From an uncultured Planctomycetales bacterium (lineage in GTDB: Bacteria > Omnitrophota > Gorgyraeia > Gygaellales > Profunditerraquicolaceae): a DNA stretch of 64,000 bases. Shown piece after piece: positions 20,560-62,500 of the stretch. Where the stretch lies: positions 464-64,463 of the forward strand of contig CAYPRG010000001.1 of the NCBI GenBank assembly GCA_964413025.1. Reading direction: 5' to 3'. Numbering within the stretch: position 1 is the stretch's first letter; every line of letters starts with the position of its first letter. The notes below the pieces were generated by a model. The model did not search any database and was not told the DNA's origin. It saw only the letters and a program-made list of their open reading frames with translations. The position numbers and the translations under genes are program-made.

Positions 20560-20562
20560 CCT
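20560..20562 (-). other. The single in-frame TAG stop codon separating the two giant open frames.
   Basis: + strand 'cta' at 20560-20562, read in the coding frame as ...[71 protein letters not shown]... Confidence 0.85.
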
Positions 20563-23500
20563 ATAGCCCAAATAAATCAATAACCCGGCGACTAAAACCA
20601 CTTTTACTAAAACTGGGATGCTGCCCAAAACCGGGAATCCGGCGAATAAGAACCCGTTAGCCAGAGAAGAGGGACTTTCACAATCCCGCATTTTATTATA
20701 CTGGTCGTTTAGAGAAGCTTTGTTCGCGCGATAGAAATCAAGAGAAGGCAGCTCTCTCTCATCATTAAGTATCCTCGCCTTCTTTGTATTCGCACGCATG
20801 AAATCATCGATTAAATCAATCCTTAGCTTACCTTGCGAATCTACAGGTAAGAAACGCTCATCAAGCAATGAACGCTTTCCCGAGGCAATATCTTCCCAAT
20901 GTTTCTTCCAATATTCATTACCGCCATTATCATCTCCCAGCAATCTTTCCTGCTTCTGTTTTTCTACTCCGGGATAAGGGAACTTTCTTTTTGCAATCCA
21001 GCTAAGGATTGATTTCTTATCTTTCCTTAATTGTTCCCAGGCAGTTTGCTCTTCCTGCCACTCTTTGCCGACATTAACAAGTTCCTCCCTGATTGTTTTC
21101 CATGTCGTCTTCATATTCCTTGCGATATAAGCACCCTGCCTATCGCCAGTTTCGGGAGTAGGATCATAGGTATAGAAGTAACGCGCTGTTGCATGCAAGA
21201 ATAGGCCATGGATTCCGGCGACTTCCCTGAATTGCTTGGCATTGAATAATTCCGGATATTTGGCATGCAGCCTGACTATCTCAACCCATTCTTTTTGGGC
21301 GTAAATGCCGGCTTTTTCCGCTTCCATAACCGCTTTTTCAAAATCAGGATAAATTCCGCTGGTGGCGATGTAATTGTCAATTACCTGGTGGACCAGATTT
21401 TCATTTTCGGGATAATAATAGTGGAGGATTTCTTCGGCGAGAGTAAGCACTGCCAGTAACGGAGGCGCACGGCTCTGAATGATATTATGTATTTTAATCA
21501 GCATGGCAGAAGCAACGGCTAATCTTTCCAGATCTCCTGTTTCTTCCAGGAAGAGTTGCGGGCGGCTTAATATGCGCGCCAGCAGGTCATATACCCTGGA
21601 ATCGTTCTTTTTGATCAGGAGCAATTCTTTAAGCGCCCGCTTAAGATATCTATCAAGCTTTCGTGGCAGGTTTCCGCTCTGTAAGCCTAAGGTATTTTTG
21701 TAACCATTAGCCTCTAAAGCAACCTCATACTTATTTGCCATATTTATTAAATCCTTCTGGGCTTTTACAAAACAACGCGAGGTATGGAAATTGCTCCTCC
21801 AGATACGGTAATCAAGCGACCCAAAAATATTATCCATCGCCTCAATCGTCTTCAGAAATTCCAAATCAATCTGACCGGAATAAATCTGATCGCAGAGTTT
21901 ATTGAACCGGAATATGTGGTCTACCGTACGCTTATTTGAATACGAAGGCGCGGTGCCGGTAGTCATTAAAAACGCCCAGTCCGAACTCTGAGCAAGGAAA
22001 AGCTCTCTTCCCGTCTGGTTCAATGCCCGCAGGGTAATCTCATCAGGGTTATTAAAACGATTAGCCAGCTCAATCATCTTCTGCGCGGCTTTTAACAGAT
22101 GCCTGTATATCCAGGCATTCCCGCCATTAAGCCAAACCGAGAAATCCCCTTCATTTCCCCAGGAGGAGAGCGCAGGTTCAGAGCGCTGAAGGGTCTTGTT
22201 TTCATCAAGATATTCAGAGATAGTCACCGGCCGCACAGTCCGTTGGTCAAAATGGAACTTGCGCATGACTAGATTGATAAAATCCTGCCCCTCGTACCAC
22301 CAATGGCCGAAAAGTTCAGCGTCGTAAGCGCAGGTAATCAAAGGTTTACTGAAATGCCATGTTTGACATCCTTCTTTTACCCTCTTAAAATGCCCATCCA
22401 GGAATTCCGCCTGTTTGCCTCTGGCCCAGACAAAATTACCAGAGTGGCAATCTACCTTGCTAGCTGCCCATCCCGGATGATAATATGCTTTCTGGTTAAG
22501 CGGCACATTTTTTCCGGTAATACGGAAATATTTAAGCCCAATCGCGTGCGGCCCTACATTTCTGAAATAATTATTGAGGCATCCGCTATCTCCATCATAG
22601 CCTAAATCGCGGTGAAATTCCTTGTAATCGGGATCTCCGGGGTAACCTCCGTCACGCGACCAGATACACTCTCTAGTCTCAGGGTCACGGCTGACAGCCA
22701 CGCATCCCGCGGGAGTAATCACGGGAGCATAGGCGGCGTAACCGGAATCAAGATGGCGGCCGAATACAGGTTTGGGATTAGCGTAGCTCAAAGTATGCAT
22801 ATCGGTCAAAAAGAAATTTATCCCCGCTTCTCTTAAGAAAACATCGAGACCAGGGTAATATGCGCATTCAGGCAACCATATACCTCTGGGAGAACATCCG
22901 AAAACTTCTTTATACTGGCTGACGGCTTGAGCCAGTTGCGCCCGTACCGCCTCAGGAAATGAATTCATTAAAGGTAAAAATCCGTGGGTAGCTGCGCAAG
23001 TGATAATCTCAATAAAACCTAAATCCTGGAAACGGCGGTAAGCCCGGGTAAAGTCCTTTTCATAACGCAGGAAAATTTCCTTGCTTTGCTTAAACTGCTC
23101 AAGATGAATCTGCACTGTATGCTCCCAGGGAGACTTATTGCGCCTGGCATTCTCGTATTCACATTCAGCGAGTTTAATCAACTCGTTTATATGCCTTAAG
23201 GTGCGCTCCTGCAGGAGCGGGTCGCGCATCATGCTTAAAAGCGGCGGGCTCAAAGAAACCGTCATCCGGAAATCCACGCCATCTTTCAGCCAAGATTCAA
23301 AATTAGCGATCTCTCTAGCGTAGACCTCAATCACAGCCTCAAAATACCACCATTCTTCAAGAAAATTATCGTATTCAGGGTGGCGCACAAAAGGAAGATG
23401 ATGATGAAGGACTAACGCCAAGTTAGCTTTTTCTGCGTAGTTATCAAGACGCGCATCGTGAAGGCCACGATAATGTTTAACCGGCGGGTCAGGGGTAAAA

Positions 23501-26500
23501 CCGCATTCCGTATTGGTAAAAGTTGGGCTTCTCTCAACTTCATGGTTACGAGCAGTCATAATGCGGTTAGACGTAGCCAGAGTTTCGTATTGACATTCTA
23601 TATAAACGCCCAGCTGGGCAATATATTCCTTCTCGGCGGAAAGATTATTGAACCAGAATTCCCGGCTGGTATTTCCCGTAATCCCTTGTTCCTGATAGCC
23701 ATTATGGTTAAACCCATTAAACGCGCCCTGGCCGCTGACATCATAGAGACGGATGGCCAAGCGGGCGTTCTGTCGGTAATAATCTACTTCGGGCATATCC
23801 CAGAAAACGTAAGCATTAGAGGTATTCCCCTGGCCAAGTAAATGAATCCCCAGCTTATTATAAAAAGTAGGGATATCTCCCCAGGTTGATTCAGGATTAA
23901 TTTTTTCTTCGCTTTCTCCGATATAATCTTCATCAGAGAGATTCTTTATGGCGAGCTCCAAAGAAGAAATCCCTGCAGGAGTAAATACGCGTGAATAACC
24001 GGCACCCTTTCTAGCGTGCCACTTGAAAGGCTCGATTTCTCCCAGATAAACCGAGCTAAAATGCCCTCTCTCAAGTAAAAATTCCATTTCCAGGCTTTCT
24101 ATCCTCTCGGATACCGCGTTCGCCCTTATACTAGAATGATGAATTGTATCTCTTAGTTTTTCGCAGATAATCCCTAATGCCTTCTTCAAAGGTATCTGGT
24201 TGCTTTTCAGGTCAGCCGAAGTTATCCCGCCCTCAATAAATAAATCTATAATTTTTTCAATTGGTTTTTCAGATGCTTCGGCAATTGCCTTAACTAAACA
24301 ATTCTGTTTTAGGGCATCGCTTATTTTATTTTCTTGCTTTTTGGATTCTTCCGGCGAATAAGCTTTGCCCGGAGCAGGAGAAGTATAAACAATGCCTGGC
24401 GCAGGCTTAATCCCGTTATTATAAAAAGCACTGAGCGCCTCTTTTTCTTCTGTTACTATCCGCGAAACCGCTTTCTTCAAAGATAAAAATAAAGACTGGC
24501 CCGCGGCTTTAGCATATACACCTTCGGATTTTGGCTTACCGTGTTCCAAGATCAACCTTAAAACTTCCACCACCCCTAAATCTTCTAATTCTTTATTAGC
24601 GGCTTTAGGGTCGCGCGCGAACTCAAAAATCCTGAATAACTGCGTTTGATTGGCCAAAGATACACAACTTGGCAGGCCTTTACCTGTCTTTAGCTCCGAC
24701 AAGACATCCTGCATCAGGGAATATGTCTCAGGCTCTATATCTAATCCAAATTGATGCTTTAAACGTAATAACCTCAGTATATCGCCCAGCAAAAAGTTAA
24801 CCCCTTCTCCCACTATCCGGACTTTATTATCCAGGAGGTCTTCCAGTGCCTGGCGGTAATGCCCATATAAATTACCGTTACAATCCACGGACATCTGCAA
24901 CAAAGCAGCGCCTGAGTGAGTGGCAAAACTTTCCTTTGTCGCTGAATCAACTACATAATTTTTTAATATGATTTCTTTTCCGGGAGCATATTCCGTTTTT
25001 ATCAGGCCGGCGAATTGGACTTTGAGCCCTTGGAAAATTGCTTCTCCGTATGGTTTTCTGAAGGTATCCTTATCGGCTCCCAGCGCCAGCGCTAGTTTTT
25101 CCAACGACTGCATGGCGAAGGAATACACTCTTTCATTGGCAGGATATTTGAGGCTTCTGAAATTATTCCTTTCTTCCTCGGTGAGTTCTACTTTTGCGGC
25201 TATATCTATATCGCCCGATTCATTACTGAAAAATATATCCCTGACCGCTCCGCCCATCACTAAAATATCTTCCAGGCCCTTTTGCTTCAGGAAATTTATG
25301 AAGTCTTTTATATTCTTATCGTTTATATCGCTTATGTCTATCCTGCCCAGTGCCAGGCCTTTTTGGGCTAACGCACGGTCGCGCTTGACCACGACTTTTT
25401 TAGCCAGCCATTTCTTAAATGCTAATATAGTCAATACTCCTAAGCCGCAGATAATGGCAGGCAGGACGAAATGTTTAATTATGCCTAATGATTCCGGAGT
25501 TATGAATGCGAAATATGTACCCATGGCGTAGATATTAGCGGTGCTGCCGGCTTCCATCTTAGCAATGGCTTCTTTTAATTCTATATATTCAGGGTTATCC
25601 TGGATGATTGTTCCGCCGGCATGGGGAAGGTTGTCTATTTCGACGGTAAGGGGAGTGGCGCTTAAGAGTTCTCTTAAGGCCTCAAGCACGCTTTTATCGT
25701 TGAATCTTTCTAAAGCTTCGGCCGCGGCAAAAGCAATGTAATGCTCTTTATCTTTTGATAATTTAATTAAACAGGGTATTGCTTTTTTGCTGCCTATCCT
25801 GTCGAGCGTTTTGGCAGCGAAATGACGGATAAGGGCAAATTTATCTTTTGATACATTAACCACGGCTTTGACCGCGGGTGTTCCGATTTTGACTAACCCT
25901 TCTAAATCCTGCCTGGCAATTAAGAAAATTATTTTTTCTCCCTCTGTCTTCGCTATCCAGCCTAATTGGCCTAACGCCCAAGCAGCTTCTAAGCGGACAT
26001 CGCTATCTTCATCTTTCAATTTTTCTTTAAGATACGCTATTGCCCAGACATTATGGATTTGGCCTAAAGCCCTTGCCGCGGCTTTACGCACAGAAGAATC
26101 TTTGTCTTCTAATAATTCGGTTAAGATATCTGCTGCTTGGCTGTCGCCGATATTACCCAATATTTCAGCTCCTGCTTCCCGGAAATCGGCGTCCGCATCT
26201 AAACTTCTTAATTCTCTAGCCAATAAAATTTCTGCCGGCAGGCCAACCTGGACTAAAGCATCTATTAAATCTTCACGCAAATGGCCTCTTTTATTTTTTA
26301 ACAATAACTTCACCAGATAATCAGCTGCTTCTTCTCCGCCAAGCTGCCCCAGAGTTTCAATAGCGGCAATTGTTTCACGGATATACCAATCCTCTGCTTT
26401 TAATTCTCTGATAATATGGGTAGCTGAGCGTTTATCACCAAGCCGGCCCAAACTTTTAACAGCTTGCTCGCGCTTTACCCAATCCTGGTCTTCCATAGCC

Positions 26501-29500
26501 TTAATATGATATGTAGACTCAAACATCATCCGGTTATCCGCGGAATCAATCAGGCGTAAGAATAACCCCCGGCCTCCTTCTTTCTGCCTGACTTCAATCA
26601 GGGCGCGATAGGAAGCTTCGGCAAAGTAATCACGCACCATATGAGAAGGAATATTATGCAGATAACCTTTGGCAAAACCGATTGCCGGACGGACTGGTAA
26701 AGCCTTTTCAGGGACAAATGAAATAATAAACGGCAGATACTTCTGAGGCTGAGCTAACACCTGTTGATAGCTGATATGCTGGTCGCCTGTGCCCTGCATC
26801 ACCCATTCAATCCCAACACTGATCAGATAGTCCCTTAAGCTGTAGAATTTATCGCCTTCCAGGTATATAAAAGGAACCAGCTTACGGTTGTTTTTCTGGG
26901 CAAATTCAGTGGCCTTACCAACCAAATAAATAAAATCTTCAAGGTTAGCGATTTTGGCAGAAGAATTTAATTCAGGGATGTTAGTCTGCAGGTATCCTGC
27001 TCTGGCAAAGTTTTTAATCTCCTCAAAAGCCTTTTCAATTGCCCCCGGATTTTGCGCTTCTTCTTTCTGCAGCTTTTCCAATTTTTCTTCCAGCAGGCCT
27101 TTACCTAACTCAACATAAGGCTGGCGCACAAAAAGATTTTCCTGGACAATTTTCGTCGCCGGATTATCCAGGTTATTCAAATCAACATCCGATGCTGAAA
27201 ATTTAGCTTTCAGCAGGGCCCTGGCGATTAAGCGATTACCTATAGTATTAGTCATTCCGTAAAAAACAGTAAAGAGTTCGGCAAATGTATTGGCTAAATC
27301 CTGCTTATCCAGCTTTTTGAAATCAGGAATGCTTATTTTAAAATTTTTGGCTGATTTACCTAATTCAAGGCCTAATAAATTGATGATAAGCTTATTAGGT
27401 TTATTTTCATAATGCACTTTTTGCCCAGTCCAATAACTTTCTTTAACCGCGATAAGGTTGACAAAACCTTCCTGCCAGATGCTTTCATTAAAGTTTTGCT
27501 CAATGGACTTTCCAAACCAGAAAAGGTAATCCGGGACTAAAAGGCAGATATCGGTTATCTCCGCATCCAGGATCATATTCCCTAAGATATTGGCAGTGTG
27601 AGCTTCCGAACGCACTTTCTTTATGTATTCATGACGAAGATCCCAATATTCTTCGGCATCAAGGTCATGGTAAGCCAGGAATGTCATCATATGCAAGTCG
27701 CCGGTCCAGCGTCCGCCTACATTATCAAACATTGCCCCAAACCCGAGAGCATCTTCTCCGAGCTCTTTATCCAGCCCGGAATTCCGGATAAAAGCAGAAA
27801 GCCTGCTGTCTGCCGGCCTATCAGTAGTTTCGAAGAACATATTTCCTAAGACCTTAGCAAATATCTTTTTAACCTGGCCATAATTGACATCCAAACCCGC
27901 GGCCACAGCATTATTAGCTATGAGAGATAGATTAAATCCTTTAAATAATTCCTGGCCTTTACGTTCTTTACCGCTGATAAAATTAATCTGGTGCAATGCG
28001 GCCAAAACGATATCGGCGAACTTCGCGCCATCAATGCCTGATTTGGCGGAGATGCGTTTTAGAAGGACATAGAAAATCTCAACAAACACTATCATTGTTT
28101 CATCGGTAGAGCCTGATTTTGAACTTGGGATGACCGCAATCTGATCCCAATCCGCGTTATTACGCGCCAAGGCCTCTGCCATCGCAGTTTCAAAATTTTT
28201 ACCCAGTTCATATTCACCGGCTATTGCCGCTGTACGCAGGTCGATTACCTCAAAACCGCTGGCAATGCCCTGGAATGGAGTATGCTGGCCGCCGATGCCG
28301 GTCTTAATAACGTATTTGATGGGCTTTCCTATTCTTTCTGCCCGCAGCCGGAAGAACTTTTTCATATTGCTGACACCTTCCAGGAATATTACTTTCCCTT
28401 CTTCGGTAAAATAACCCTGGCTTCCTTTTAAGGCATGCGAACCATCGACTGCCGCGCCTTCAGGAACACCATACCCATCCTTTTTATATCCACCCCTAAG
28501 GAAACGCGCTGCCATTTCTATATCCCCTTTGGCATCCAAAGGAGTAGTAAGCTTTTCAAAAATTACCCGGCTTTCTTTCTTTTCTTTCGCCATCTTTACA
28601 TCCATTGCTTCTTCCACGTTTACCTCCGCATTTTGATGAGAAGATATCCCTAATAAAGCCATGCCTATTTTACCTAAAAATTCCTGCCTTGCAATATCTG
28701 TTACTTCGGTATAAAGACGAGCCACGTTTTCTGTCCCGGAAAGCCGGATACACAACCAATCTCCGCTTTCAAAAACTACTTTTAGTCCATCGGATGTGAT
28801 TACTACCGCTATCTTTTGCGCCATTCCCAAAGATTGCAATTTCTTAGCTAAAGACATCTCTTGGAAGCTGACTTTTGCGAGTTCTTCCCGCGCCTGCTTG
28901 ATAAGGCTAGAGGCTTTATCTTTTAACTCCTGGGTCAATATTATGTTATCCCGGCGATAGAAAAACTTCCTGCCGATAGTATTCTCGATTTCCTCTTTAT
29001 AGCTGGTCAGGCTCTTATTTTTATCCGCGGCCATCCAAAGGCACATTAAGCCAATAACAATACCGTCATCCCATGACTGCATAAATGGCCCTACCCCCAC
29101 ATGCGCGGATTCTTCGCCGGCGACAATAAACTTTCTATTATTCTTTATAACTTCTTCAACCGACCACTTGAACCCGACTTTTGTCTCTATCAGAGACAAC
29201 CCTAAATAATCGCAGACCGCGTTAACAAAATTAGAGGTAGCTACTGTTTTTCCTACCGCTCCGCGGAAACCTTTCTCATGGAGGAAATAAGCCAGCATGG
29301 CGATAATCTCATTAGCAGACATCTCTTTTCCGCCAAAATCTATTACTCCGAACCTGTCCGCGTCCCCATCAGCAGCAATACCCAAAGTAGTATTGTTTTT
29401 GTTCACCTCGGTTAACAAATCTACGATACTTGCTTTTTCCGTAGGATTAGGCGCGCCGTTTACCTGGTAAAAATAAGGGTCTTTATTACAGTAATGGATT

Positions 29501-32500
29501 ATGCTAAATATTCTATTTGTTTCCATTTCTATCTGGGCGTATATAGCCGCGAAATACCTCACTGCCGCGCCCTGCATAGGGTCTAAAACTAATTTAAAAT
29601 CAGGATTACGCTTTATATACGAAACAATTGTATCCCAGGCGCCGATTTTTTTAAGCGTAGGAATAATATACTTCTCCACATATATATCTATTGCATCCTT
29701 AAAGGTCAATTCTTTGATTAAGCCCGAACTCTTAGCCACAGCATAATCAATATAGCGGTATACATTGCTCTGGTTAGCGCAATCAGAAATTAGTTTTGTA
29801 GCCTCTTCATCCGCCGCTCCGCCGTGGTAAGGCGAAAATTTAAACCCGCCATCGGTATATTTATTATGAGAAGCCGTAAGGTTAATCACCCCGCTGATTC
29901 CTTTGTCTGAATTTGCCAGATACCCCAACACCGGGCTGGGCGCGGGTTCATTGATGATTATTCTTACCGGAATATCATTTGCCGCCAGGATAGAGGCGAT
30001 ATTCTTGGCGAAATCAGGATTCCCTCTTCTAGCATCATAACCGATTAATATCGCGCCTCTACCGATACGGCGTCTATAATATTCTGCTACACCTTGAGCC
30101 GCGCGCCGGACATTAGCCGAAATAAAATCCTGCCCTATGGTTCCGCGCCAACCAGAAGTGCCAAAACTTATCTTTGTGCCGGTAGAATACAGGTTCACGG
30201 TAACCGGCTGAATAGCTACAAAACCCAACAACTCATCTTCTAATTCAAGGTTCTTTTCGTGAAGCTGGCCCATGGCCGCGCCTAATTCATGGATTATGGT
30301 TAAAGCCAATTCAAGGGTGTTATAAAGGATTGATTGGTCAATATAGAGAAGCTTCTCATGGATTGCGCCGAAGAATAAATCATACGGCCCTGCCCTTAAA
30401 TAACCTTCTTCGGGCAATAATTCATTTAATTTCATCAGCCGCTTTTCGGCTTCTTCGGATTTATATTTAAGTTTCAGGAAATCTGCGGCGAATTCTTTTG
30501 CCCGCAGGACAAAGGGCAAATCTTTTATTCTGGATTCTTTGTAGCCTTTTTTGGCTATTTCCTGGGCAACTTCTTCTGCTGTTATCTCTAAGCCAGACTT
30601 GGAGCGGCCAAAATCAACCGCCTCTATTACTGAATACCCGTATTTTTTAAAAACCGCGGTAATTGATGAAAAATCTGTCATCATGATCACCCCTGATCTG
30701 GATATCTCATCAATAATCGACCTGCGAATAAAAGCGTATCCGGAATCTCTAAATTGGTACATGGCTAATTTTGGATTCCTCTCAAATTTTCCAAAAATGA
30801 GCTGCAGCAAGTCTTCAGGAAGCGTATCTACCATATTTAAAACTTGGGCGACCCTTCTTTCTCCTCCGCAACCATATACTTCCATAAATGTCACTAAAGC
30901 CGGGGGCGCAATTGAAAAATCCAAATTGAAATCTTGTACATAAGTATCAAAAAGCGCCGATGGCTCATGGGTTATACCTTTGGCAATATGGCTGATAAGT
31001 TCATGGTAGAGTATCTCTAACTGTTTTGATTTCGCGTAGCCCGGGAAGCTTGGATGGATAAAAACGGTGTTTTCCGGATAATCTTTACTTATGCGGAACC
31101 CAAGATTTACTGCCGCTACATTCCCCCCCATCTGTTCTAAAATCTTTCTATCAGTAGTAAAGATAAACGTGGCTTCTGGAGGTGCGCGTTCGGCGACTAT
31201 AGCCAAACGCTCTAGAATATGTTTTAATCTACCTTCGGTATCTTTCCAGAATTTCCTTGCCTGCGGCGCATCCAAAAGATATTCAACCTTGTTCAAACCC
31301 GTATTAACCCTGACTATATCCCTTTCTCCGAATAGCTCAATGAATACCTTCTGGATCGCGGAAGAAACAAGAATAGGATAAGTATTCGGCTTAGCGAATT
31401 CATCCCACTTCTTTTCCGACCAGATCTCCAAATGGTCAACATTGCCGACGAAAACAATCTTTCCGCCCTTTTCTAATCCCGCTTCATCAACCAATTCCGG
31501 ACAAATAACTATTCTTCTCTGCTTATCTAGGGTCACCGGGAAACTAAAAACACTAAGCTTAACTTTTTCTTCTTCCGCGAGCGCGTCTATCTTTTTGTTA
31601 TAAGAATCTACCGTGTATATAAGGATTTTTTGTACCAGGGGATTACAATACAAATAAAGCTCTGCTTTATCTCTAAAATTTCCGGCAAAGGCTGCGGGGA
31701 TAATTGCCCGGTTTTTATTATCTAAGGTCGACTTATAGTGTCCGGGGAAAGAAACCCGCTGCTCTTTTACTGTGCCAAAGAGCTTCACCCTGTTTCTGCC
31801 TTCGTTTTTGGCCTCATAGAGGGCTCTATCTACATTAGCTATCAGGGTCTCCATGGGCATATCCTTCTTAAAACTGGCTACCCCTATACTTACGGTGCAA
31901 TTCAAGATTATTTCTTTTCCTTCATTGTTCTTCACCTTGAATTGATTTCCTTCGACTATCTTCCTGATATCCTCGGCAACGGTATAGTAAGCCAAATCCT
32001 CTTCGGTGTGAGGCAAAATAACCGTGAATTCTTCGCCGCCGATCCTACAAGCAATATCAGGTCTTCTCACCCTTTTCTTTATCAGTTCTGATATTTCTTT
32101 GAGCATAGTATCGCCTGCCGGATGGCCATAGGTGTCATTTATTGATTTAAAATGGTCGATATCCAGCATCAACAAAGATAATGGGTGGTCTTCATGCCTC
32201 TGGGCATCTTCTATTTCATTAGATAAGGCTAAATCAAAATATCTGCGATTAAAAAGATTAGTTAAAACATCCACATAAGCCAAACTATCCAATTCATCAG
32301 CTATGGCCTCAAGAAACTCTATCTGTAACGAGGAGTTTTCCGGGCAAGACAGGCCTTTACGCGCCCCCGATTCATGCAAGACTGCTGACTTCAATTTACG
32401 GGCGTTATTAAAAATGGCTTCGTTAAGGTAATAAGTCCCCTCATGCGCCGCGATATAGAATTTCTCAAAATTCCCCACCCTTGCCGAAGCGGTATCGATT

Positions 32501-53500: not shown

Positions 53501-56500
53501 GCGATTATAATGATTGTACTAATAACGATTATGCTAAGAATAATATTGTTAATAACTTCATCTTTTAAATTCTGAAATACCGTTACCCTGAGCCACTTCG
53601 CCACCAATATCATCAAAATGGCACTACCCATAACCTTACTAACTCCTTTATATAGTGAATATATTATTACCTTACGTATAATAGAAACTAATCTTGCAAC
53701 AAAAAAACCAACCAAAATCGGACCTATAACCAGAACTATAAATGACGCAATCCCCCAGAAAATCATCGAAAGGAAAGATATATCGTTACTTCCTTGCTCC
53801 AAGGGGCCGCTTTTGCCAGCGCAACCATTTAAGAACATCATTGAGCCTAAAAAAAGAAAAGCTAAAATAATTTTATTAGAATTGTCAGAAGCAAAGTTTT
53901 TAACTTCCGGGGATTTAATTACTGTGTTTTCGATGCCACGGATGTAGCCAAACTTATCTCCAGTCGTAATAAGCTTTACTTGTCTTACTCCTATTTGCCC
54001 GATCTCTACTTCGCGTAATCCTTTAATCTTCTCGTGTAGCTGTTTAAATTCTTCCGGAGTAATCTTGTTTACAATTCTTCCCAGGCTAATATGCACTAAT
54101 GGCGTATAGTGCTTATTATCTGAAAATTCTTTATATAATTTTTCTCTCAATTCAAATATCTTCTCGTCATCAACATGCCCCTGGACGAATATTGCTCCAT
54201 CAAAACCTAAATTTATGCCCTCGAATCTTATTTTGATTGGACCAACACTAGCCATAATCTTTTCTATTGTTTCGGCTATCTTCCCATTAACCTGGAACAT
54301 ATTATTGCAGTCGTTGATTAAGCTCGAAAACAAGCTGGTATGCAATAAATCACTAGGGATTAATTCTAATGCAGGGTAGACTTTCTGAATTTCTTTTCCG
54401 ATAAACGACAATTTATTAATTAATTTCTCACCTAAACCAGCACGATCTACACTTAGAGCTATTGATTGCAGTGCGGAATTTTGTAATGGCTTAGGTGTTT
54501 TGCCTTGTGCTACCATTTCGCCAGTCGCCTGCCAAATACTTCCATAAGCCTCTTCTAAACTGGTTTTATCTTTAATTAAAAGGGATTTTCTCGGTTTTTC
54601 ATCAGCTTCGTGGTTATTTTCTTTTTCAGCAATAACTGAAGAAGATTTGTCGGAAACGTTTGCTCTGGTTTGTCTTTTCCAAGAAGGAAGAGCAAAGCGG
54701 GTGATATCTTCTCCTATATATTCTCCGTGGCTACAATCGGATGGAGAAAATAGACAATCACTTACAGAATCATCCCATTCAAACCAATTACAGTCATGCG
54801 GAATCATTGGAGCAATTGGGTATTGACTTTCAGAAGCTTCTTTCTTATGCTTAGCTACTAACATTTTTTCAGTATCTTTGTCATAGGCAGGGCATTTATA
54901 TAGTTTACGACTTACTACTTCAACATTTTGTCCTACTAAAGCGATTTCATCCTTAAGTTCTTGCTCTAATTGTTCAATGGAATTCGAACGTTCAAGCATT
55001 TCGGGCAAGGCATTTCTTAATTCACTATCTTCCAATTTCTTACCTCTGGCTTCCTTAAACCATAGCGAAATAAGCCTAGCCACCCCTAAGGATTTTTCTA
55101 ATCTTTCTGGCGTAATATTGAACTTTATTACTATCTTTTTCAAATCTCTCAATAATTCTTCTCCATCATTCCTTCTCTCTAAAACACTTGCAAATTCTTC
55201 TAAACAGCAGATATTTGTTTCATATTCTATTAAATTCTTTGATATTCCAAGAGAAATGGGAACCCCGATTTTAAGAATAAAATCAGGGTTTATATCTTTG
55301 CCAATCAGCCTAACCCCCATATTTATCGTAATCTCAAGCCACTTAGATTCGCTTTTTGTTTCTAATAATTCGACTAAATCTACAATATACCCAAAATACA
55401 TTGATTTTTTTTCTAATTTATCTAGTAATAATTTAATGGAAGGATATTTTATCAAAACTAATCTTAATTTTATTTCCCTATTTTTTGAATGGTTCATTGA
55501 TAGGGTGTTTAAAAGGAATTGCAATAATTTTCTGTTCGAAAGTTCTGCCTCCGGAATTCCATACCTACACAGAGATAAAGCTATTTCTACCCTGACATCC
55601 AAATTCGGGCTCTCCGAAGCTTTAAGATAACCTCCCAATATTTGTTCTCTAGTTGCACCTAGTTTAGCTAACGACTCTGCAGCTTCCCACACTCCACAAC
55701 CTAGTGCTATAACGAGAGCCTCAATGGCTCTTTTATCATTAATTTCTCCCAAAAATTTTGCTGCATAATTACAAACATTTATATGAGGGTCGCGCAATTT
55801 TATCAAAAGCACACTAAACAACTGTTCTTTAGCTTCTAACGACGTCAGTGCTTCAAAACAGCTTCTTGCTACTTCGTAACACTGAGTTTCATTTAACGCA
55901 GAAAGTAGCTCCGGGATAGCTCGCTTATCTTTCGAGCGTCCCAAGAAAGTAACGGCCATACGAACAACTCTGTAATTACTATCATTTAGCGCCTCAATAT
56001 TTGAATCTACGCTGAAACCTGCAGGGTTAGAACATCCAACGCATTCCAATGTTTTACTAAAATTAATATAATTCACATAACCTAATTCTACTGTTTCATA
56101 AGAATGGGGTTTGGCTTCGTCATCTGACAATCCCCAATATTCTTTTTCATCAGCACTTATTATCGCATCCTTCCTAAACACCCTCCATTTATATCCTCCC
56201 CCTAAACATGACTGCACATATCTTACAACTCTATACTGGTCAGCTTTTTTGGTTTCTTTTAATGTTTTTTTCTCTATAACTATCTTATTAAAGATTTCAT
56301 TCAAGAACCTCCTAGTTGCGGATATTGGCATATCTTTATCCATACTTATGCTAAGAATTATCTTAGTAAATTCTAACATGGCGCTTATAGGAGCATCTTT
56401 ACTTGACCATATTAATTGCTTACCGTTTGAATTCATCCATTCAATCCATTTATGGGTTCCGATTTCTAAAATTTCTATATTCCTCTTGTAATATTCAACA

Positions 56501-59500
56501 TCACCTTTTGCGTATTGCCACGCAAGGGGAAGCCCTTCCTGGAGACAATTGCAAATCGGAAAACCTGAATTTGATAGCTTTACCCCTAATTGTAAACCGA
56601 AAATAAATGCTTCCTTTTGTTTAACGTCCTCTAGGTCAAAACTTTTCAGTAAAGAAGGAATTAATACTTTTGCGCTAAATTCCAACGGCAGATTATTCTT
56701 TTTTAGAGAAGATAAATATTCATTGATTACTTCACGAGCCGCGAGTTTCCTTATATGATATTTCCTTTCTAACCTCCCTATATACCAGCTTATTGGAAAT
56801 ACATACCGCCAGATAATAAGGAATAGACCAATACCAACCGGGATTGCTATAGAGGTAACAAGCGAAAATCCTAAAATAGAAGCCTTAGCCATTGAGAAAG
56901 CAGAAGTCGTTACATCTAAAGTATTACCATTTGTGCCACATCCACTCAATCCCACCAGCGCACCAAGAGAAACAAATAATATAATTGACCAGCATGGACC
57001 CCAATAATCCTGACGGTCACTGCGCCCTTCGCCAGGATAAGTTAAATCTTCCGGTTTCGCAAACTCGCTATCATTGAGATGAGAATTGAGTCTTCTTTTC
57101 TCCAGCATTTCTTGAATGGCGTAATATAATAATTGCCCGAAAAATATAAGAACAGAAACTAACAAGGCCCAGCCGGCTATAGCGTTACTATAATTATTTA
57201 ACCAAGATAATATCGAAGTAGTTTCATTCGAGTATCCAGTCTTTGCACATCCTACTAACCCCATTAACGCGCCTGTAAATAACAGGAATAAAAAAATCCT
57301 GCTAGAAGATTTAATACCACCGGAATCAGACTGCCGTAGATAATATATGTATCTCCAACCGAGACTTCCATCCTCGTATGGCCTTGGTAATTGAGAGCGC
57401 TCTATATGAGCTATTGCAGGTATATTGCCTTTCAAACTGTCATAAAAGTTTACAGCGGGATTATTTTGTTTTACATCTAAGACTATTTTGTCAGTATTTG
57501 AGTTTAAAACATATCTGATTAGTGCTTTCGCCAGTTCTGTGGCAATGCCTTCCCGGCGATGGCTTGGCGATACGGCCATCTGGTTGATGTAAATCGGGCA
57601 TCCTTCTTCAGGTCCAAAAATTAAATATCCAGTGATTTCTTTGCCATCGTAGTACACTAAGGTAGAATGGCCGGCTGCTTTGATTTTGTTGGAAACTAAG
57701 GATGGCGTGACGAAAGGCTTATCAGAAGTTTCCGCTATTGCATTGTTGAGCATTGAAATCTGATTTAACACATAGTTATTGATTTGCGTATTATCAAGCA
57801 AGAAGATAGATTCACTAATCTGCCTACCTTCAAATTTCTTTTCCTCCTCGTCCTCTCTCCTTTCAGTTTCTTGAGCAGGAATTACTGAAGCAGTTTCTGC
57901 GGAGACAGGCTTCTGAGCCTGTTGTTCCGGAAGTTTTATCTGGAAGGCAATTACTTTGCCATTTAGATTTGTATAAGCAAGCTGAACAAAAACGCAGTTA
58001 TTAAGAGAGATACTATTAGGGTTAATTTCTAAATGAATACTGGCAAATCTAATAGAAATGATATCTTTTTCTTTGAGAGGAATTAAATTGCCTTGTTTAT
58101 CCTGAATTTTAATTGTAATCTTGCCTGTCTTAATCCAATCCTTGAGGATATTTTCTGCGGTTTGAAGATTTTGCTTTACTATTCCGGGGAGTTCTGTATC
58201 TACAACCAACTCTATGGATGTATCTTTTTGCTCGACTTTAAGCGGAGGAGCCTGGGCATCACGTAAAGCCGCATCAAGGATTTCATTCAATTTTGATTCT
58301 ATCTCTGCTTCTATCTGAACAACGGGCTGATTGATTGTCTTTGAAGAATTTCTTTTAACGCGTAGTTTAATTTTTAAATTATCAAAACGAGGGCGACCAT
58401 CTTTTTGAACAGAATATTTACCATCTTCAATTATAACCTCAATATTATCCTGAATGCCGTTTGAACGCACATCTTTTGACTCTATTCTTTCGCCATTTTT
58501 GTCAAAATAACGGTTAAGAATATCATTCAGGTTGACCGGCTCGGAAACCAAATTGTTAATTTTAATATCTCCCATGAATACAGGGCCGTGGGAATTCCTA
58601 GTGAATAACACTTCTTTTGCGCCTTTAATGACTAACGACTTAAGGTTCATTATGGAAAACTTCCCAAATGCCTTCTGGCAATTGGTTAAATCATCGTAGT
58701 AAGGAATACCTCTAAACTCAATATAAGGAGGATATTTTGAAGAATCAATGTTTTCCAGCATCCAAGTTTCTTGGTTAACCCTGTAGAAGTCGCTGTCTGC
58801 CTGCAGTAAATAATCGAAAATCAATTTAATAGGAGTAAAGAACTTGGTGCGATCGGCAGGCGCATCAAGATTGACGAGACGTAACAATTTGTCTACTCCG
58901 TAGCGCTTGAGGATTTCTTTTGCCTTGTCATTCTTTTCGCAGAAATTATGCAAGTTAATAAAGCAGGAGCCGATAGGGCCTTCAATCTGAATATATTTCT
59001 CGCCGTCAGGCCCTGGCTTAAGGCCGGATATTAAATCTGAAGCATATATCTCTTGTAAATTTGCTAACTCCCCTCCAAAAACCTCTTTAACTATATCTTT
59101 TAAAATCTTACCTATGAGATCTTGATCCAAGAGAGCAATATTGGTATTAAAGTATTGTTTCCCTGCCTGGCCATAGCCTTCTTTGATGCTATTCTTTTCA
59201 AAAATGTCAGTCTGATTGTTAATTACGGCTGCGGCGCGCTCCTGCATACCTAAATACTCATAAACAATAGTGCCGTCAGGAAGGATTTTAATCTTATAAC
59301 CAAATTGCCCGCCTTTTATATCGGCTGGGATTTTGGTAGAAGTTATCATAATAATAGGAACATTATTCTTAATCATCCATTCTATGGTGTAATCGTCGGG
59401 AAAGTTATTAGTTCCGTCTCCGTTAAAGAAGGCGCGGATTGTCTTAAGATTGTTATCGAACTCTTTCCCGTCTTCTCTCTTTAGAAAAATATTCACCATT

Positions 59501-62500
59501 TCAGTTAAAAGCTTAGAGCCCCATTCGCCGTGACTTAAGTTTCCCTCTCTTTTTTTAGTAGGAATTCTTGTTTCCGGGTCAACAGAAGGATAAGGTTTAA
59601 CTATATACCAGTTCTTAATTATTCCCAATTCTTCCATAACTTTTTCATAAGTGCGTGCCGCCTCGCTGCGCTTACCCAACAGCCTATCCCGTACATCTTC
59701 AAAATATTCTGTTTCAAATAAATTGTCGTAAGTAGGTTTAGAAGCAGTGTCGCCTACACTGACTATCGGGTCAAAAGATATTATGCCTTTAAATCCTTTT
59801 GCTCTCTTGCCCCTTGTTTCTTTTATAAGACGCAATAATTTAATTTCTGCGATAGGAAGTATTTTATATCTTTCATTCTCCGGGACAGTTTCTCCTAAAT
59901 CAATCTTGAAATAAAGGTCCCCGCCCTTAGAACGCAATTCAGTCCTTCTAAATATCTGCCAAACCATCTTTTTTCTGCGCAGGCTTGTGCCTAATCCTGC
60001 GTCTAAACAGAGAAGGTGGATATTATATTCAGGAATACCTGTAACTTTGGAGATTTCTCTTCTGTATTCATCGATTTCTTTTACCAAATCCTGATAATTA
60101 ATAACGCCAAATAACTCCTTTCTCTTTTCGTCACTAAACATTTCTGAAGCAGAAAATAAAAAGTTCTTATTTATTATTAAAGCGGGCAGGTTAGGAAGAG
60201 GTCTGAGGTATTTCATAAACAAGGCCCGGAAACAGGCCTTGCTTGATTCATCCAGCTTTTCACTGCCCGTCCCCTCAATCATCAAAGCCTCTTCGATCTC
60301 TTCCGGGCTTGGCCTTTTTGCAATAGTAACTTTGGCATTCTTCAAGCATAGCTGCTCCCTTTCGTCTTCATAGAATTCCCCGTTTTCAACTGGGCGGGCC
60401 ATTTCTTCAGGTAAAGGCCTAGAGAAATAAAACTTCTCTCTGGTTCTATTTTCTATTGTAACACTACCCTCTACTATGCCCTTAAGTTCAACCGCGTTAC
60501 CGATAAATCTCAAAAAAGACTTATCAGTTATGTCTGTCCTCCTGGATATCCCACCGACAGTTAACTCCACGGATTTGCAATTTTCCGGCTTTAATCCCCC
60601 GACCGGGAATTTATCGGATTTAATTTTAGCCGGGTCGATTTCAAGATGAATAGTGTCGAATTCAATGGCAACCTGATCCTTGGGAACATCTATCCAGGCT
60701 CCTTTGCTATCCTGCAGGCGAATCTTAATCATTTCATCATCCAGCTCTTCCGCCGGATTAATGTATTCCGGCATTCCATTCATTATGGCATTGAATAAAA
60801 TCTTGGTTACTACCGGTTCTTTTACTTCTTCATTTCCTAACTGACGCTTAAAAGTGCTTACCTTTAGCTTAAGCTTAGCCTGATCAGAGATCTTAATTAC
60901 TTTAGGAGAAGCTTTTCCTCTGGTAAACTCTACGGCTTCATACTTCCTGTCCCCGGGCACTTTCTGAGGAATAGCCTTAATTTCCATATTCATATTAGGA
61001 TAAGCAACAGAGACAGCTTCAGAAGCAAATGGCACATCTACCCAATTTTCATTATCGCCATCTTTGACTAAAATTCTGAACCGGACACTCTTATCGCGTT
61101 TGATTATTTTTTGAATATTATCTTTCTGCCTGAAATCTTCCTTAATAATCACATCTATTGTGCCATCTTGATATTTAAATTTCATTTTTGACTGGACAGG
61201 AGTAACCGGCTCAAGGTCATTTATAATATCGTAAATAGCTCTCCGCTTCATATCTTTAAACCAATAAAGTAAACTTACTGCCAAGTGTACTTTCCAAGGC
61301 AGGACTGTATAAACTTCATCTGTTACCACTTCATCAAAAGCATCGCCCTTTTTCCTTGCTGATTCTAGCTTACTCACTACTACAGGATGTACGAGAAGAT
61401 TCTTTAAATCATACCCGAATAGTTTAATCAAAAGCCAATATGTAAACGGCCTTAAGATAAACATAAGCGTAATGGCCAACAGAGGAACTGATTCTTTAAG
61501 GCCTTTCCATAAATCTATACCTTTTAAATTCCCTTTGCGGTCCCGGAATAAACCATAGGCACGCATACCGCTTAAGAACGAAAGAGATGCTAAAAGATAT
61601 AATATAATGGCTGCGGCACCTAATTTCGTCAGGAAGAAAAGCCCGACTAAGAACCCAAATATAGCCGCCATAGAAGCGATACCATTAAATGGCATACCTT
61701 TAGAAAAACCTACAGAATACACCATCATAGTATTCGCATAATAGTTAGGCCTATTAAACCCTCCGATTACAGTTTTCTTAATCGTTGAAATAAAAGCGAA
61801 TATGGAATTAGAGGCATACATAATACCCTTAAAGAACAGTGCCAATAGAGGAACATAGAATGGGAAGGCTATAATAATATCCCTCAAAGTCAGAACAGAA
61901 GCTCCCCAGAAACTGGCAGATTGCCTCCAATGTCTTATAAAGTTATTGGCATTGATTGCTTCCATGAAGAAGAAGCTTATGGCGATAAAGAATACTGCTG
62001 GAGTCAAGAAAGCAAACGAGCTAAACGGAGAGAGTAACGGCAACACCGCTAAGAGAACAAGAGCAAATGCTGATATGAAATAATGAAACCATAAGAATAA
62101 ATGTGACAATTTCTTATCAACGGGTAAATCCTTGTTAAAGAATAGCGCAAATTGGTTTCTATCCATCATGAACCGGGTTACATTATAAGCGTAGCGCAAC
62201 TCTGTATTCGCCAGAGAGGAATCTAACAAGGTCGGACGGCCCCAATCCATCATGAACCAGTCTATCTGGGTAGATTCCATCAACGGCTGCTTGTTTTGTA
62301 TGACTAAGAATGAACCGGAATCTTCTCCGGGAGGGGTAAAGAGTATCGCCGCGACTTCCGGACGGCAGCATCCTTTACCGTAAAAGGTCAAGGCACCTCT
62401 ACGCGCTCTCTGCGTATCTCCTGTCCAGGTTTCCTGGGCGATAGCATAGATTTCTGGCACAGGGAACGCCCAATCTCCAGGGAAGAATGAATTCGCATTA

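Follow-up and report, generated by a model that had tools for sequence, protein, structure and literature searches.

A stop-free frame of at least 21,333 codons joins hexose-phosphate, glucan and regulatory modules in what is very probably an Omnitrophota-type giant protein

Can enzymes of glucose, glycogen and trehalose metabolism, which known bacteria make as separate proteins, be joined in one membrane-threaded polypeptide? The question is raised by a 64,000-nucleotide stretch of contig CAYPRG010000001.1 (positions 464 to 64,463) from an uncultured bacterium of GTDB lineage Omnitrophota, here called the window. A preliminary description, made from the letters alone, had placed such a fusion at window positions 21800-60300, with two glycosidases in a downstream frame, and had called it unprecedented. 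Our analyses bear out the fusion: the enzyme modules stand consecutively within one stop-free, membrane-threaded frame. The extent first given is too small, as the frame occupies the entire window:

1..63999, minus strand: single continuous open reading frame (ORF), 21,333 codons or longer, that runs past both window ends (stop count; translation without a stop symbol)

Six-frame stop counts over the 64-kb window revealed no TAA, TAG or TGA across the 21,333 codons of the minus-strand frame that starts at base 63999, with 720-1,949 stops in each of the remaining five frames. The stop density in the other minus-strand frames is ~8% per codon, which gives a probability of ~e^-1700 for a frame free of stops; the giant frame is not explicable by chance. 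Its composition is constant along all 21,333 codons, with GC content ordered by codon position as GC1 > GC3 > GC2 and ~63-67% purine at position 1, and the same bias is seen in stretches without a recognizable domain. The window is an internal 21,333-codon portion of one giant gene, and at 21,333 or more stop-free codons the frame is longer than both lengths by which giant ORFs have been defined, at least 10,000 amino acids (aa) (Nielsen & Lui 2026, bioRxiv 10.64898/2026.06.07.730766) or more than 20 kb (Seymour 2023, PMC10066038). A listing of ORFs of at least 150 aa holds only four short ORFs, all outside the giant frame; the giant ORF is missing from it because it runs past both window ends.

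Residues are numbered such that aa 1 corresponds to bases 63999-63997 of the window, minus strand. All nine enzyme motifs named in the preliminary description lie in this single frame, between aa 1329 and aa 18127, as had been stated: LLCLDAGLGTSL at aa 1329, HTIVPAG at 4218, LRDGMNLV at 5636, GGGPASGHN at 6123, PKTMDND at 6247, TASHN at 11375, SKSGSTDET at 11960, WLPECAY at 13708 and GFRADLA at 18127. Because all nine map to the giant frame, the GH13 and clan GH-A modules that had been assigned to a downstream frame in fact share it.

Several other accounts of so long a frame were considered and rejected. Reassignment of a stop codon is irrelevant, as the giant frame contains no stop of any type. 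Expansion of tandem repeats was set aside, with zero tandem repeats found and few internal repeats in a self-BLAST of the protein, as were embedded RNA genes; scans of the whole window found no tRNA, Rfam family or tandem repeat. It might also be argued that neighboring genes look fused because of an assembly chimera or of sequencing errors that erased stops. One point in favor of this account is that an exact 50-mer from the window start had no match in the public genome and metagenome contig collections that were searched. Errors, however, create stops and frameshifts far more easily than they could erase the ~1,700 stops expected over 64 kb, and independent assemblies from many studies show contig-spanning ORFs with homologous modules. 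We regard the probability of such an artefact as next to negligible.

The translated ORF was cut into tiled pieces of 1,000 aa and scanned with Pfam and NCBIfam, and selected modules were searched against the PDB. At least 25 distinct enzyme and regulator families follow one another along the chain, spaced by HEAT repeats and clustered hydrophobic helices. In the Pfam scan, ~25-30 families tile the protein with none dominant, HEAT and GNAT alone recurring. Of the families named at first, these profile searches recovered phosphoglucomutase (PGM), phosphofructokinase (PFK), GT20, GH57 with BE_C and a GH2-like TIM barrel and, weakly, Phosphorylase and alpha-amylase; for glucose-6-phosphate isomerase (PGI) and UDP-glucose pyrophosphorylase (UGPase) the single sequence gave no match at E<1e-3. 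Modules beyond that first list include GH161, a MalK/UgpC ATPase, GGDEF, a family II pyrophosphatase, patatin and an RpoD-like sigma domain. About half of the protein has no domain recognizable by Pfam or NCBIfam, and 4,758 aa of concatenated "dark" regions gave zero PDB matches.

Four modules belong to sugar-phosphate metabolism:

28642..30183, minus strand: phosphoglucomutase/phosphomannomutase, four domains, aa 11273-11786 (Pfam PGM_PMM_I-IV, NCBIfam)
26530..28554, minus strand: divergent PGI-like (SIS) module, aa 11816-12490 (profile A1 against the PDB, motifs)
44500..45657, minus strand: PFK with a signature of the inorganic pyrophosphate (PPi) type, aa 6115-6500 (Pfam PFK, NCBIfam, PDB)
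58369..60363, minus strand: UGPase-like (UDPGP/PF01704-type) nucleotidyltransferase, aa 1213-1877 (profile A3)

The phosphoglucomutase is confirmed by all four Pfam domains (PF02878, PF02879, PF02880 and PF00408, aa 11277-11768), each above its cut-off, and by all four loops of an alpha-D-phosphohexomutase (TASHN, DGDADR, GEES and RLSGTE). NCBIfam scores are 170 bits for archaeal GlmM and 143 bits for pgm. The module is 53-63% identical to its relatives; in alignment A2, whose members are 48-61% identical, no catalytic motif column varies. The phosphofructokinase read from GGGPASGHN and PKTMDND is likewise firm. PF00365 matches aa 6115-6458 with 164 bits, and NCBIfam gives 166 bits for PFK_mixed and 161 bits for the Thermotogales PPi-PFK, both below their equivalog cut-offs; an FGR motif is also present. 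The PPi-PFK 9dqm is the second-best PDB match and the best single-domain match (E=6.6e-27). Chi & Kemp are said to have set out in 2000 that dependence on PPi is marked by an Asp after GGD (GGDD) and a Lys before TIDND. Both residues are there, in GGDD (aa 6223) and in KTMDND (aa 6248), and by this signature the module is of the PPi-dependent type, with PPi as the predicted phosphoryl donor.

The PGI-like module is more divergent. PGIs are marked by SKSGxTxET, GGR[FY]S and a catalytic Glu, His and Lys. The module has the motifs GIGGQ, SKSGSTDET, GGRWT, EQNFNES, RQPYVELGK and GDQHISYQQ and gives no match in Pfam or NCBIfam, and its single sequence has no significant match in the PDB. A profile of six sequences (A1), however, matches genuine PGIs, best 1B0Z at E=4.4e-15. 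The glucose-6-phosphate isomerase of the preliminary description thus stands as to its SKSGSTDET motif and probably as to its kinship to PGI; the single sequence falls below curated hidden Markov model (HMM) thresholds. BLAST identities are 56% to the module of locus L023 and 47% to that of locus L029. In an L-INS-i alignment that includes both, SKSGSTDET, GGRWT, EQNFNES, GDQHISYQQ and RQPYVELGK align with the Glu, His and Lys motifs of PGI, and SKSGSTDET, GGRWT, NES, QH and VELGK are conserved among giant-type modules. An AlphaFold2 model built from a six-sequence alignment was unusable (mean predicted local distance difference test score 39.5); its top Foldseek matches include PGIs, the best at E 0.06. 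PGI is found in 67 of 176 complete Omnitrophota genomes (Nielsen & Lui 2026), and divergent copies hidden in giant ORFs might explain part of that gap.

A similar picture holds for the UGPase-like module, whose motifs are LDAGLGTS, NGDGTNN, KGGQ, YFNTN and RFFTPIK, to be set beside the LxGGLGTxM and KGG by which UGPases are known. The single sequence is divergent, with no significant PDB match (3gue, E=0.41) and 21.7 bits against PF01704, under the cut-off of 22. Together with five giant-ORF relatives it forms profile A3, which matches eukaryote-type UGPases (best 8c0b, E=7e-14), and PF01704 matches all six A3 members. Modules in L013, L017, L019 and L021 are 31-48% identical to it.

Six further modules are related to enzymes of glucan or trehalose metabolism or to glycosidases:

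38527..41706, minus strand: full-length homologue of GH161 beta-1,3-glucan phosphorylase, aa 7432-8491 (PDB search)
21799..23862, minus strand: DUF4912 and GH57 glucan-branching enzyme with BE_C, aa 13380-14067 (Pfam, NCBIfam, PDB)
46741..48237, minus strand: GT20 trehalose-6-phosphate-synthase-like module, aa 5255-5753 (Pfam Glyco_transf_20, NCBIfam, PDB)
50080..52032, minus strand: GT35 (alpha-glucan phosphorylase)-like module, aa ~3990-4640 (Pfam Phosphorylase, PDB 4bqe)
8680..10302, minus strand: GH13-like module, aa ~17900-18440 (Pfam Alpha-amylase, motifs)
1..1122, minus strand: signal-anchor-like helix (aa 20926-20944), then a clan GH-A TIM-barrel glycosidase-like module (Pfam Glyco_hydro_2_C, 24 bits)

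Two of these align with nearly the whole length of a known structure. The GH161 module matches PDB 9qqk, described as "GH161 phosphorylase", with 823.9 bits (E=1.6e-246) over residues 4-1036 of 1,046, and by this full-length similarity is a GH161 homologue; Pfam does not see it, and NCBIfam gives GH149-like partial matches. Members of the family phosphorolyse beta-1,3-gluco-oligosaccharides to yield glucose-1-phosphate (PMC6484121). The GH57 reading also holds, the module matching Thermotoga maritima AmyC (2B5D) with 442.7 bits (E=1.9e-131) over residues 5-523 of 528. A GH57 branching enzyme is marked by a nucleophile Glu (WxPEC/MA), an acid/base Asp and a BE_C domain; here WLPECA and DAELFGHWW are intact, Pfam matches PF03065, PF09210 and DUF4912, and the NCBIfam branching-enzyme model gives 316 bits, below its equivalog cut-off of 1000.

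Trehalose-6-phosphate synthase OtsA binds UDP-glucose and glucose-6-phosphate through GGL, HDYH, R262/K267, D361 and E369 (E. coli numbering). The GT20 module keeps HDYH, FIHVPWPS, R..(x4)K and the LRDGMNLV noted at first, whereas KE has become KV and the N-terminal GGL has become GAV, and a C-terminal insertion is present. PF00982 gives 199.6 bits and PDB 5lqd E=1.3e-38; the NCBIfam OtsA score (~171-172 bits) is far below the equivalog cut-off of 565. In the GT35-like module HTIVPAG is present and Phosphorylase scores 34.4 bits (cut-off 27) over 67 residues (4455-4521), while the match to 4bqe has E=0.0035. We took the pyridoxal phosphate (PLP)-binding lysine of the EASGTxxMK motif as the mark of this family. 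It is lacking from the PLP site (EAGPTSVGNAQLNG versus EASGTSNMKFALNG) and is replaced in the 4bqe alignment, so the "probable alpha-glucan phosphorylase" keeps its weak Pfam match and loses its cofactor lysine. For the GH13-like module, PF00128 scores 34.6 bits (cut-off 22) but covers the N-terminal 110 residues only, with weak TreY-like matches in NCBIfam. Of the four conserved GH13 regions, with their catalytic Asp, Glu and Asp, regions I (DFVTNH), II (GFRADLAH) and IV (FIEDHD) are present and region III is probably AETY, its Glu assigned by eye. The clan GH-A hydrolase was recovered as a GH2-like TIM barrel with the motifs GNEN and AEFG, truncated by the window end.

The same polypeptide carries modules for transport, signaling, regulation and other functions:

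19348..20460, minus strand: complete UgpC/MalK-type sugar ABC-transporter ATPase with MalK OB domain, aa 14514-14884 (NCBIfam, Pfam ABC_tran and OB_MalK)
31780..32292, minus strand: GGDEF diguanylate cyclase, aa 10570-10740 (Pfam GGDEF, 160.8 bits)
6418..7200, minus strand: RpoD-like sigma-70 regions 2-4, aa ~18934-19194 (Pfam Sigma70 r2, r3 and r4, NCBIfam RpoD)
31390..31749, minus strand: MraZ-like, aa 10751-10870 (Pfam MraZ, 44.5 bits; NCBIfam TIGR00242, 57 bits, below cut-off)
14206..15546, minus strand: DHH/DHHA2 family II inorganic-pyrophosphatase-like, aa 16152-16598 (Pfam DHHA2 and DHH, NCBIfam)
16963..18414, minus strand: DUF218 and patatin-like phospholipase, aa 15196-15679 (Pfam DUF218, 57.9 bits; Patatin, 86.8 bits)
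57430..57729, minus strand: first GNAT acetyltransferase, aa 2091-2190 (Pfam Acetyltransf_1, 49.9 bits, E=4.6e-13)
43639..43881, minus strand: second GNAT acetyltransferase, aa 6707-6787 (Pfam Acetyltransf_7, 43.6 bits)
46441..46674, minus strand: NUDIX-like, aa 5776-5853 (Pfam NUDIX, 31.5 bits)
13261..13662, minus strand: weak S-adenosylmethionine (SAM)-methyltransferase-like match, aa 16780-16913 (Pfam/NCBIfam, E ~1e-3 to 1e-5)
8032..8361, minus strand: weak match to permuted papain-like C92 amidases, aa 18547-18656 (Pfam Peptidase_C92, 29.3 bits)

The transporter ATPase scores 442.2 bits against NCBIfam PRK11650 (cut-off 432; profile positions 15-352 of 357) and 370 bits against MalK, and has every expected motif (Walker A GPSGCGKS, Q-loop, LSGGE, Walker B VFLFDE and H-loop THD). 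It is sited between a single transmembrane (TM) segment and a TM hairpin. The presence of a MalK-type ATPase suggests that the giant protein may dock onto a sugar importer. The GGDEF module (NCBIfam 170 bits, cut-off 37) has a GGEEF active site and an RRPD I-site. The sigma module is 42-49% identical to ordinary RpoD proteins, with YAAWWIRQAITRAL and LTRERIRQIEAKAIKR read in it and NCBIfam scores of 249 bits for RpoD and 234 bits for RpoD_Cterm, both under the equivalog cut-offs; a sigma-like stretch is also found in a 7,852-aa protein (P0142). The pyrophosphatase-like module has the DHH motif and 77 bits (E=1.6e-21, below cut-off) against the NCBIfam Mn-dependent pyrophosphatase, and the patatin-like module has GGGVK, GTSAG and DGG. 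The NUDIX-like module has REVIEE and does not match the strict box pattern. A P-loop kinase-like stretch lies between the second GNAT module and GGDEF in the Pfam/NCBIfam scan, and HEAT repeats stand between the first GNAT module and the Phosphorylase match and again between PGM and DUF4912.

Are these modules working enzymes or remnants? They might be captured fragments that piled up passively and serve no joint function, largely relics in a frame kept open for a structural or adhesive role. The lost PLP lysine, the imperfect Nudix box and the changed Glu of GT20 fit such accretion, as do the half of the sequence that lacks a recognizable domain and the shuffled module order among relatives described below. 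Against it, a motif search of the translation found intact catalytic motifs in PGM, PFK, GH57, GH13, GGDEF, MalK, patatin and DHH, and the invariant motif columns across relatives as little as 48% identical, together with the full-length, high-scoring GH161, GH57 and UgpC matches, indicate purifying selection on enzymes. Accretion of this kind is in our judgment very unlikely. Since catalytic motifs are kept in most modules, these are not systematically degraded remnants, an outcome that the preliminary description had singled out as one to check.

The modules recur elsewhere. At 40-63% identity and in different orders, the same ones are found in other contig-spanning ORFs, most on contigs labelled Omnitrophota; the PGM module closest to that of the window (63%) bears this label, as do most giant-ORF relatives, the others being labelled Planctomycetia, Elusimicrobia or archaeal. 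The PGM frame is open to both edges of the 21.5-kb loci L008, L017 and L020, which makes it no shorter than ~7,180 aa there; several more loci have it open at one edge or both, and a series of short contigs is open end to end. BLAST against the window protein shows that a PGI-like module precedes PGM in L023 and L029. L016 has two PGM copies, and L017 has two UGPase-like copies flanking its PGM and the N-terminal module of the window (41% identity over 871 aa). This last is a conserved module: window aa 5-848 (61456-63987, including a six-TM cluster) is 41% identical to L017 aa 843-1674, from the Omnitrophota metagenome-assembled genome (MAG) STD1_220.

Exhaustive HMMER searches detected relatives of the PFK module (57-60% identical) in proteins of 5,534-7,819 aa and one of the GT20 module (46%) in the 7,852-aa P0142; another protein, P0141, occupies its entire 22.7-kb contig. 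A word-indexed homology search with the GT20-NUDIX-PFK stretch gave matches of at most 31% identity, so that the exhaustive search was needed for the relatives at 46-60%. In a metagenome scan with the PFK alignment, the matches listed include only loci at 28-38%, and the patterns PKTMDND and TLGGDDTN proved generic to PPi-PFKs.

PGM relatives are of two kinds. Those at 57-63% identity lie in MAG contigs mostly labelled Omnitrophota; the others are free-standing ~1,020-aa PGM-PGI genes (Bathyarchaeia/Thermoproteota). Like the window, these free-standing fusions (P0001-P0006; L001-L004, L006, L009-L011) have a SIS/PGI-type domain after a PGM that is 57-60% identical, but they are ordinary genes with a start and a stop, and their PGI halves are ~22-24% identical to that of the window. 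In L001 the PGM-PGI gene belongs to a cluster of glycogen genes that also holds GT5, GDE and GH57. The PGM frame is an ordinary gene in the archaeal loci, and the archaeal PGM-PGI genes (L006, L009-L011 and L026) form one clade nested among giant-embedded bacterial modules in a neighbor-joining tree without support values, which suggests that PGM genes may have passed between bacteria and archaea. L008 (contig JAIWAR010000003.1) is labelled Methanosarcinales archaeon and has its PGM homologue in an ORF open across the whole 21.5-kb locus; it probably comes from an Omnitrophota-type episymbiont binned with its archaeal host. The recurrence of modules in a new order in other giant ORFs, and the free-standing relatives of PGM, fit the alternative that had been offered, domain capture by a giant gene, and we infer a pool of modules that would be captured by and shuffled among giant genes.

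On which side of the membrane might these modules lie? TM segments were called by a Kyte-Doolittle hydropathy scan and by reading of the sequence. The protein has 34 segments at hydropathy >=1.7 and 49 at >=1.35, in ~12 clusters, among them:

61426..62079, minus strand: cluster A, ~6 TM-like segments, aa 641-858 (hydropathy and reading)
53482..57297, minus strand: hairpin clusters B (aa 2235-2403) and C (aa 3377-3506), separated by a dark region and HEAT repeats (reading; Pfam HEAT_2)
34198..38121, minus strand: clusters E and F, a signal-peptide-like segment and an intervening dark region, aa 8627-9934 (hydropathy and reading)

Most segments are closely spaced pairs with Lys/Arg flanks, that is, hairpins, and because they pair in this way the flanking domains would stay on the same side of the membrane. 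Apparently single segments are found at aa ~8969, ~12848, ~14457 and ~20926. Those at ~12848 and ~14457 bracket DUF4912-GH57, and that at ~20926 precedes the GH-A module. If these segments are counted through, all nucleotide-, PPi-, acetyl-CoA- and SAM-dependent modules would, we infer, fall on one side, with GH57 and the C-terminal glycosidase on the opposite one.

Three hairpins open with a helix that resembles a lipoprotein signal and has LVGC, LSGC or LNGC at its end (aa 2235-2251, 2337-2354 and 3377-3393; window ~57249-57297, ~56940-56991 and ~53823-53871, minus strand), by a rough estimate more than chance would give. These lipobox helices might descend from lipoprotein genes that were captured, or they might mark sites of lipidation or of cleavage.

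How does this ORF compare with giants already known? Giant ORFs of more than 20 kb occur in most Omnitrophota classes (Seymour 2023). Omnitrophota giants with HEAT, GT5/GT1, TPR, GGDEF and NUDIX domains and, less commonly, triosephosphate isomerase, glucose-phosphate isomerase, FBPase, PGM/PMM and aldolase have been described (West-Roberts 2023, bioRxiv 10.1101/2023.11.21.568195), and a "multi-enzyme metabolic cluster" class and a sugar-metabolism module of co-occurring Pfam domains have been defined (Nielsen & Lui 2026). The claim that the arrangement is unprecedented is therefore incorrect. Like class 1 of Nielsen & Lui, the window has a single ORF of at least 10 kAA (thousand amino acids) tiled by many Pfam families with none dominant, a PGM sugar module, GNAT, methyltransferase and NUDIX domains, HEAT scaffolding, many TM helices and little tandem nucleotide repetition. 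In that class, by contrast, the sugar module is headed by starch-synthase/GT1, which the window lacks, and the window carries GT20, PPi-PFK, GH57, GH161, a MalK-type ATPase and an RpoD-like domain. With the Archaeovorins of West-Roberts it shares HEAT, GGDEF, NUDIX and PGM/PMM and, in a divergent, PGI-like form, glucose-phosphate isomerase in one TM-rich giant ORF. Unlike them, it has no Pfam match to dockerin (neither PF00404 for dockerin type I nor PF18884 for TSP3 repeats), TPR, SLT or SecA-DEAD. Most full-length giant genes carry a divergent SecA DEAD domain (West-Roberts 2023); neither Pfam nor NCBIfam finds SecA within the window, and the N terminus of the ORF lies beyond it. The 39,678-aa ORF of "Ca. 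Velamenicoccus archaeovorus" LiM, for which peptides were detected (Seymour 2023), is likewise giant and TM-containing, with 42 TM helices versus ~34-49 hydrophobic segments in the 21,333 aa here, but ORFs of the LiM type have few annotated domains and a proposed role as adhesin or coat, whereas the window is rich in recognizable enzymes.

Consecutive pathway steps on one polypeptide are familiar from bifunctional OtsA/OtsB (TPS-TPP) fusions, eukaryotic AROM, CAD and fatty-acid synthase. These classical multifunctional enzymes have two to eight activities in at most ~4,000 aa, a conserved order, and demonstrated channeling or coordinated expression; the window differs in its at least 25 families, more than 21,000 aa, membrane anchors and an order that is not conserved. 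Taken together, we think it very probable that the window ORF is an Omnitrophota-type giant multi-enzyme ORF, of a membrane-anchored kind met with in Omnitrophota and in uncultured bacteria related to them. Trehalose, phosphofructokinase and sigma are absent from the main text of Nielsen & Lui and from West-Roberts, and ABC from the former; the supplements were left unchecked, and we therefore claim no novelty for the trehalose, PFK, ABC and sigma modules.

As to what the protein does, we put at roughly 0.45 the probability that it is a mainly cytoplasm-facing, membrane-tethered hexose-phosphate hub built by module capture. Whole genes or modules would have been captured in frame and then shuffled between giant genes, and the polypeptide would be pinned to the inner membrane mainly by its K/R-flanked helical hairpins. 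Given such hairpin anchoring, every module with a need for nucleotides, PPi or phosphate would face the cytoplasm: the UGPase-like, GT20, PPi-PFK, GH161, GGDEF, PGM, PGI-like, MalK-type ATPase, pyrophosphatase and sigma-like modules. Two parts that each follow an apparently single TM segment may sit outside, namely GH57 together with DUF4912, and the GH-A glycosidase at the C-terminal end. The connections between the steps follow the textbook reactions of each enzyme family. The MalK/UgpC-type ATPase would energize sugar import, and the GH161 phosphorylase would supply the other modules with glucose-1-phosphate from beta-1,3-gluco-oligosaccharides. PGM would turn this into glucose-6-phosphate, the PGI-like module would convert that to fructose-6-phosphate, and PPi-PFK would phosphorylate the latter with PPi that could come from the UGPase-like step. 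The UGPase-like module would make UDP-glucose and PPi, with the pyrophosphatase-like module removing any surplus; GT20 would join UDP-glucose with glucose-6-phosphate, and GH57 and GH13 would act on alpha-glucan. This coherence of the predicted pathway makes the "assembly line" or metabolon of the preliminary description plausible.

Several observations weigh against such a hub. Module order is not conserved among relatives, and a strict assembly line is therefore disfavored. The changed signatures of GT35-like, GT20 and Nudix indicate that some modules may be inactive, and the window yielded no glycogen synthase, trehalose-phosphate phosphatase or hexokinase. The positive-inside rule gives contradictory orientations around aa 12848 and 14457. 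In favor of the hub, 94% of the giants have TM or signal sequences, and those with TM segments only are read as facing the cytoplasm, the biochemistry of the giants being left open; DeepTMHMM, however, put the metabolic content of one 147-kAA multi-enzyme giant outside (Nielsen & Lui 2026).

That placement would suit a surface or periplasmic effector, a polypeptide mostly exported whose carbohydrate-active modules attach to and digest the envelopes of prey or host and pre-process the sugars. The model here is the Archaeovorins, for which extracellular cell-wall degradation is favored: their glycolytic-type domains were predicted to be extracellular, and giant genes have been linked to secretion and carbohydrate import loci (West-Roberts 2023). 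The signal-peptide-like and lipobox-like helices of the window, and its glycosidase modules after single TM segments, would be in keeping with export. The cofactors point the other way, to a cytoplasmic face: the ABC ATPase needs ATP, GGDEF GTP, the UGPase-like module UTP, PPi-PFK PPi, GNAT acetyl-CoA and the methyltransferase SAM, while RNA polymerase or DNA must be at hand for the sigma-70 and MraZ modules. Moreover, the paired hairpins that make up most TM segments would not carry flanking domains across the membrane, and West-Roberts caution that an overlooked TM segment may have misplaced the localization. An exported effector is thus unlikely.

The lipobox helices also bear on whether the chain stays whole. 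The giant ORF might be translated once and then cut, for example at these helices or by embedded peptidase-like modules, into ordinary enzymes. The modules do correspond to complete stand-alone enzymes, as the nearly full-length GH57, GH161 and UgpC alignments attest, PGM has close free-standing relatives, and a C92 amidase-like module is present. A lipobox, however, occurs at the three sites only and not at module borders in general, and neither preprint on Omnitrophota giant proteins mentions processing, so we hold a polyprotein to be very improbable.

Two repeated domains give no Pfam or PDB match. One is a ~170-aa unit in ~3 copies of at most 37% identity (aa 19300-19800, window ~4600-6100). 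The other, of ~150 aa, is present three times at 29-49% identity (aa 14911-15077, 19976-20115 and 20589-20741; window ~18770-19270, ~3655-4075 and ~1777-2235).

Bacterial proteins of more than 20,000 aa are rare and have almost no experimental characterization, and the example in the window is unusually readable. It holds a connected and mostly intact set of predicted enzymes around glucose-1-phosphate, glucose-6-phosphate and UDP-glucose, with PPi made by the UGPase-like module and used by PPi-PFK and the pyrophosphatase, and the same polypeptide bears an importer ATPase, a diguanylate cyclase and a sigma-like domain. A further-reaching proposal is that the giant ORF is the main or only carrier in its organism of enzymes of upper glycolysis and hexose phosphates (PGM, PGI, PPi-PFK and UGPase), and the main carrier of the MalK-type ATPase and the RpoD-like sigma, an "operon in one protein" made of entire housekeeping genes joined in frame, whose product may be lipid-anchored or cut at the lipobox helices. 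We consider this decidedly unlikely; if true, giant proteins in reduced genomes would belong to core physiology and would not be tools of predation only, and apparently "missing" pathway steps, such as PGI in the Omnitrophota genomes counted above, could be explained. The window thus offers a test case for whether metabolic modules of giant proteins are cytoplasmic or exposed, whether they are active, and whether they replace free-standing housekeeping genes in reduced genomes, and its relatives indicate that such modules move between giant genes and apparently also between bacteria and archaea.

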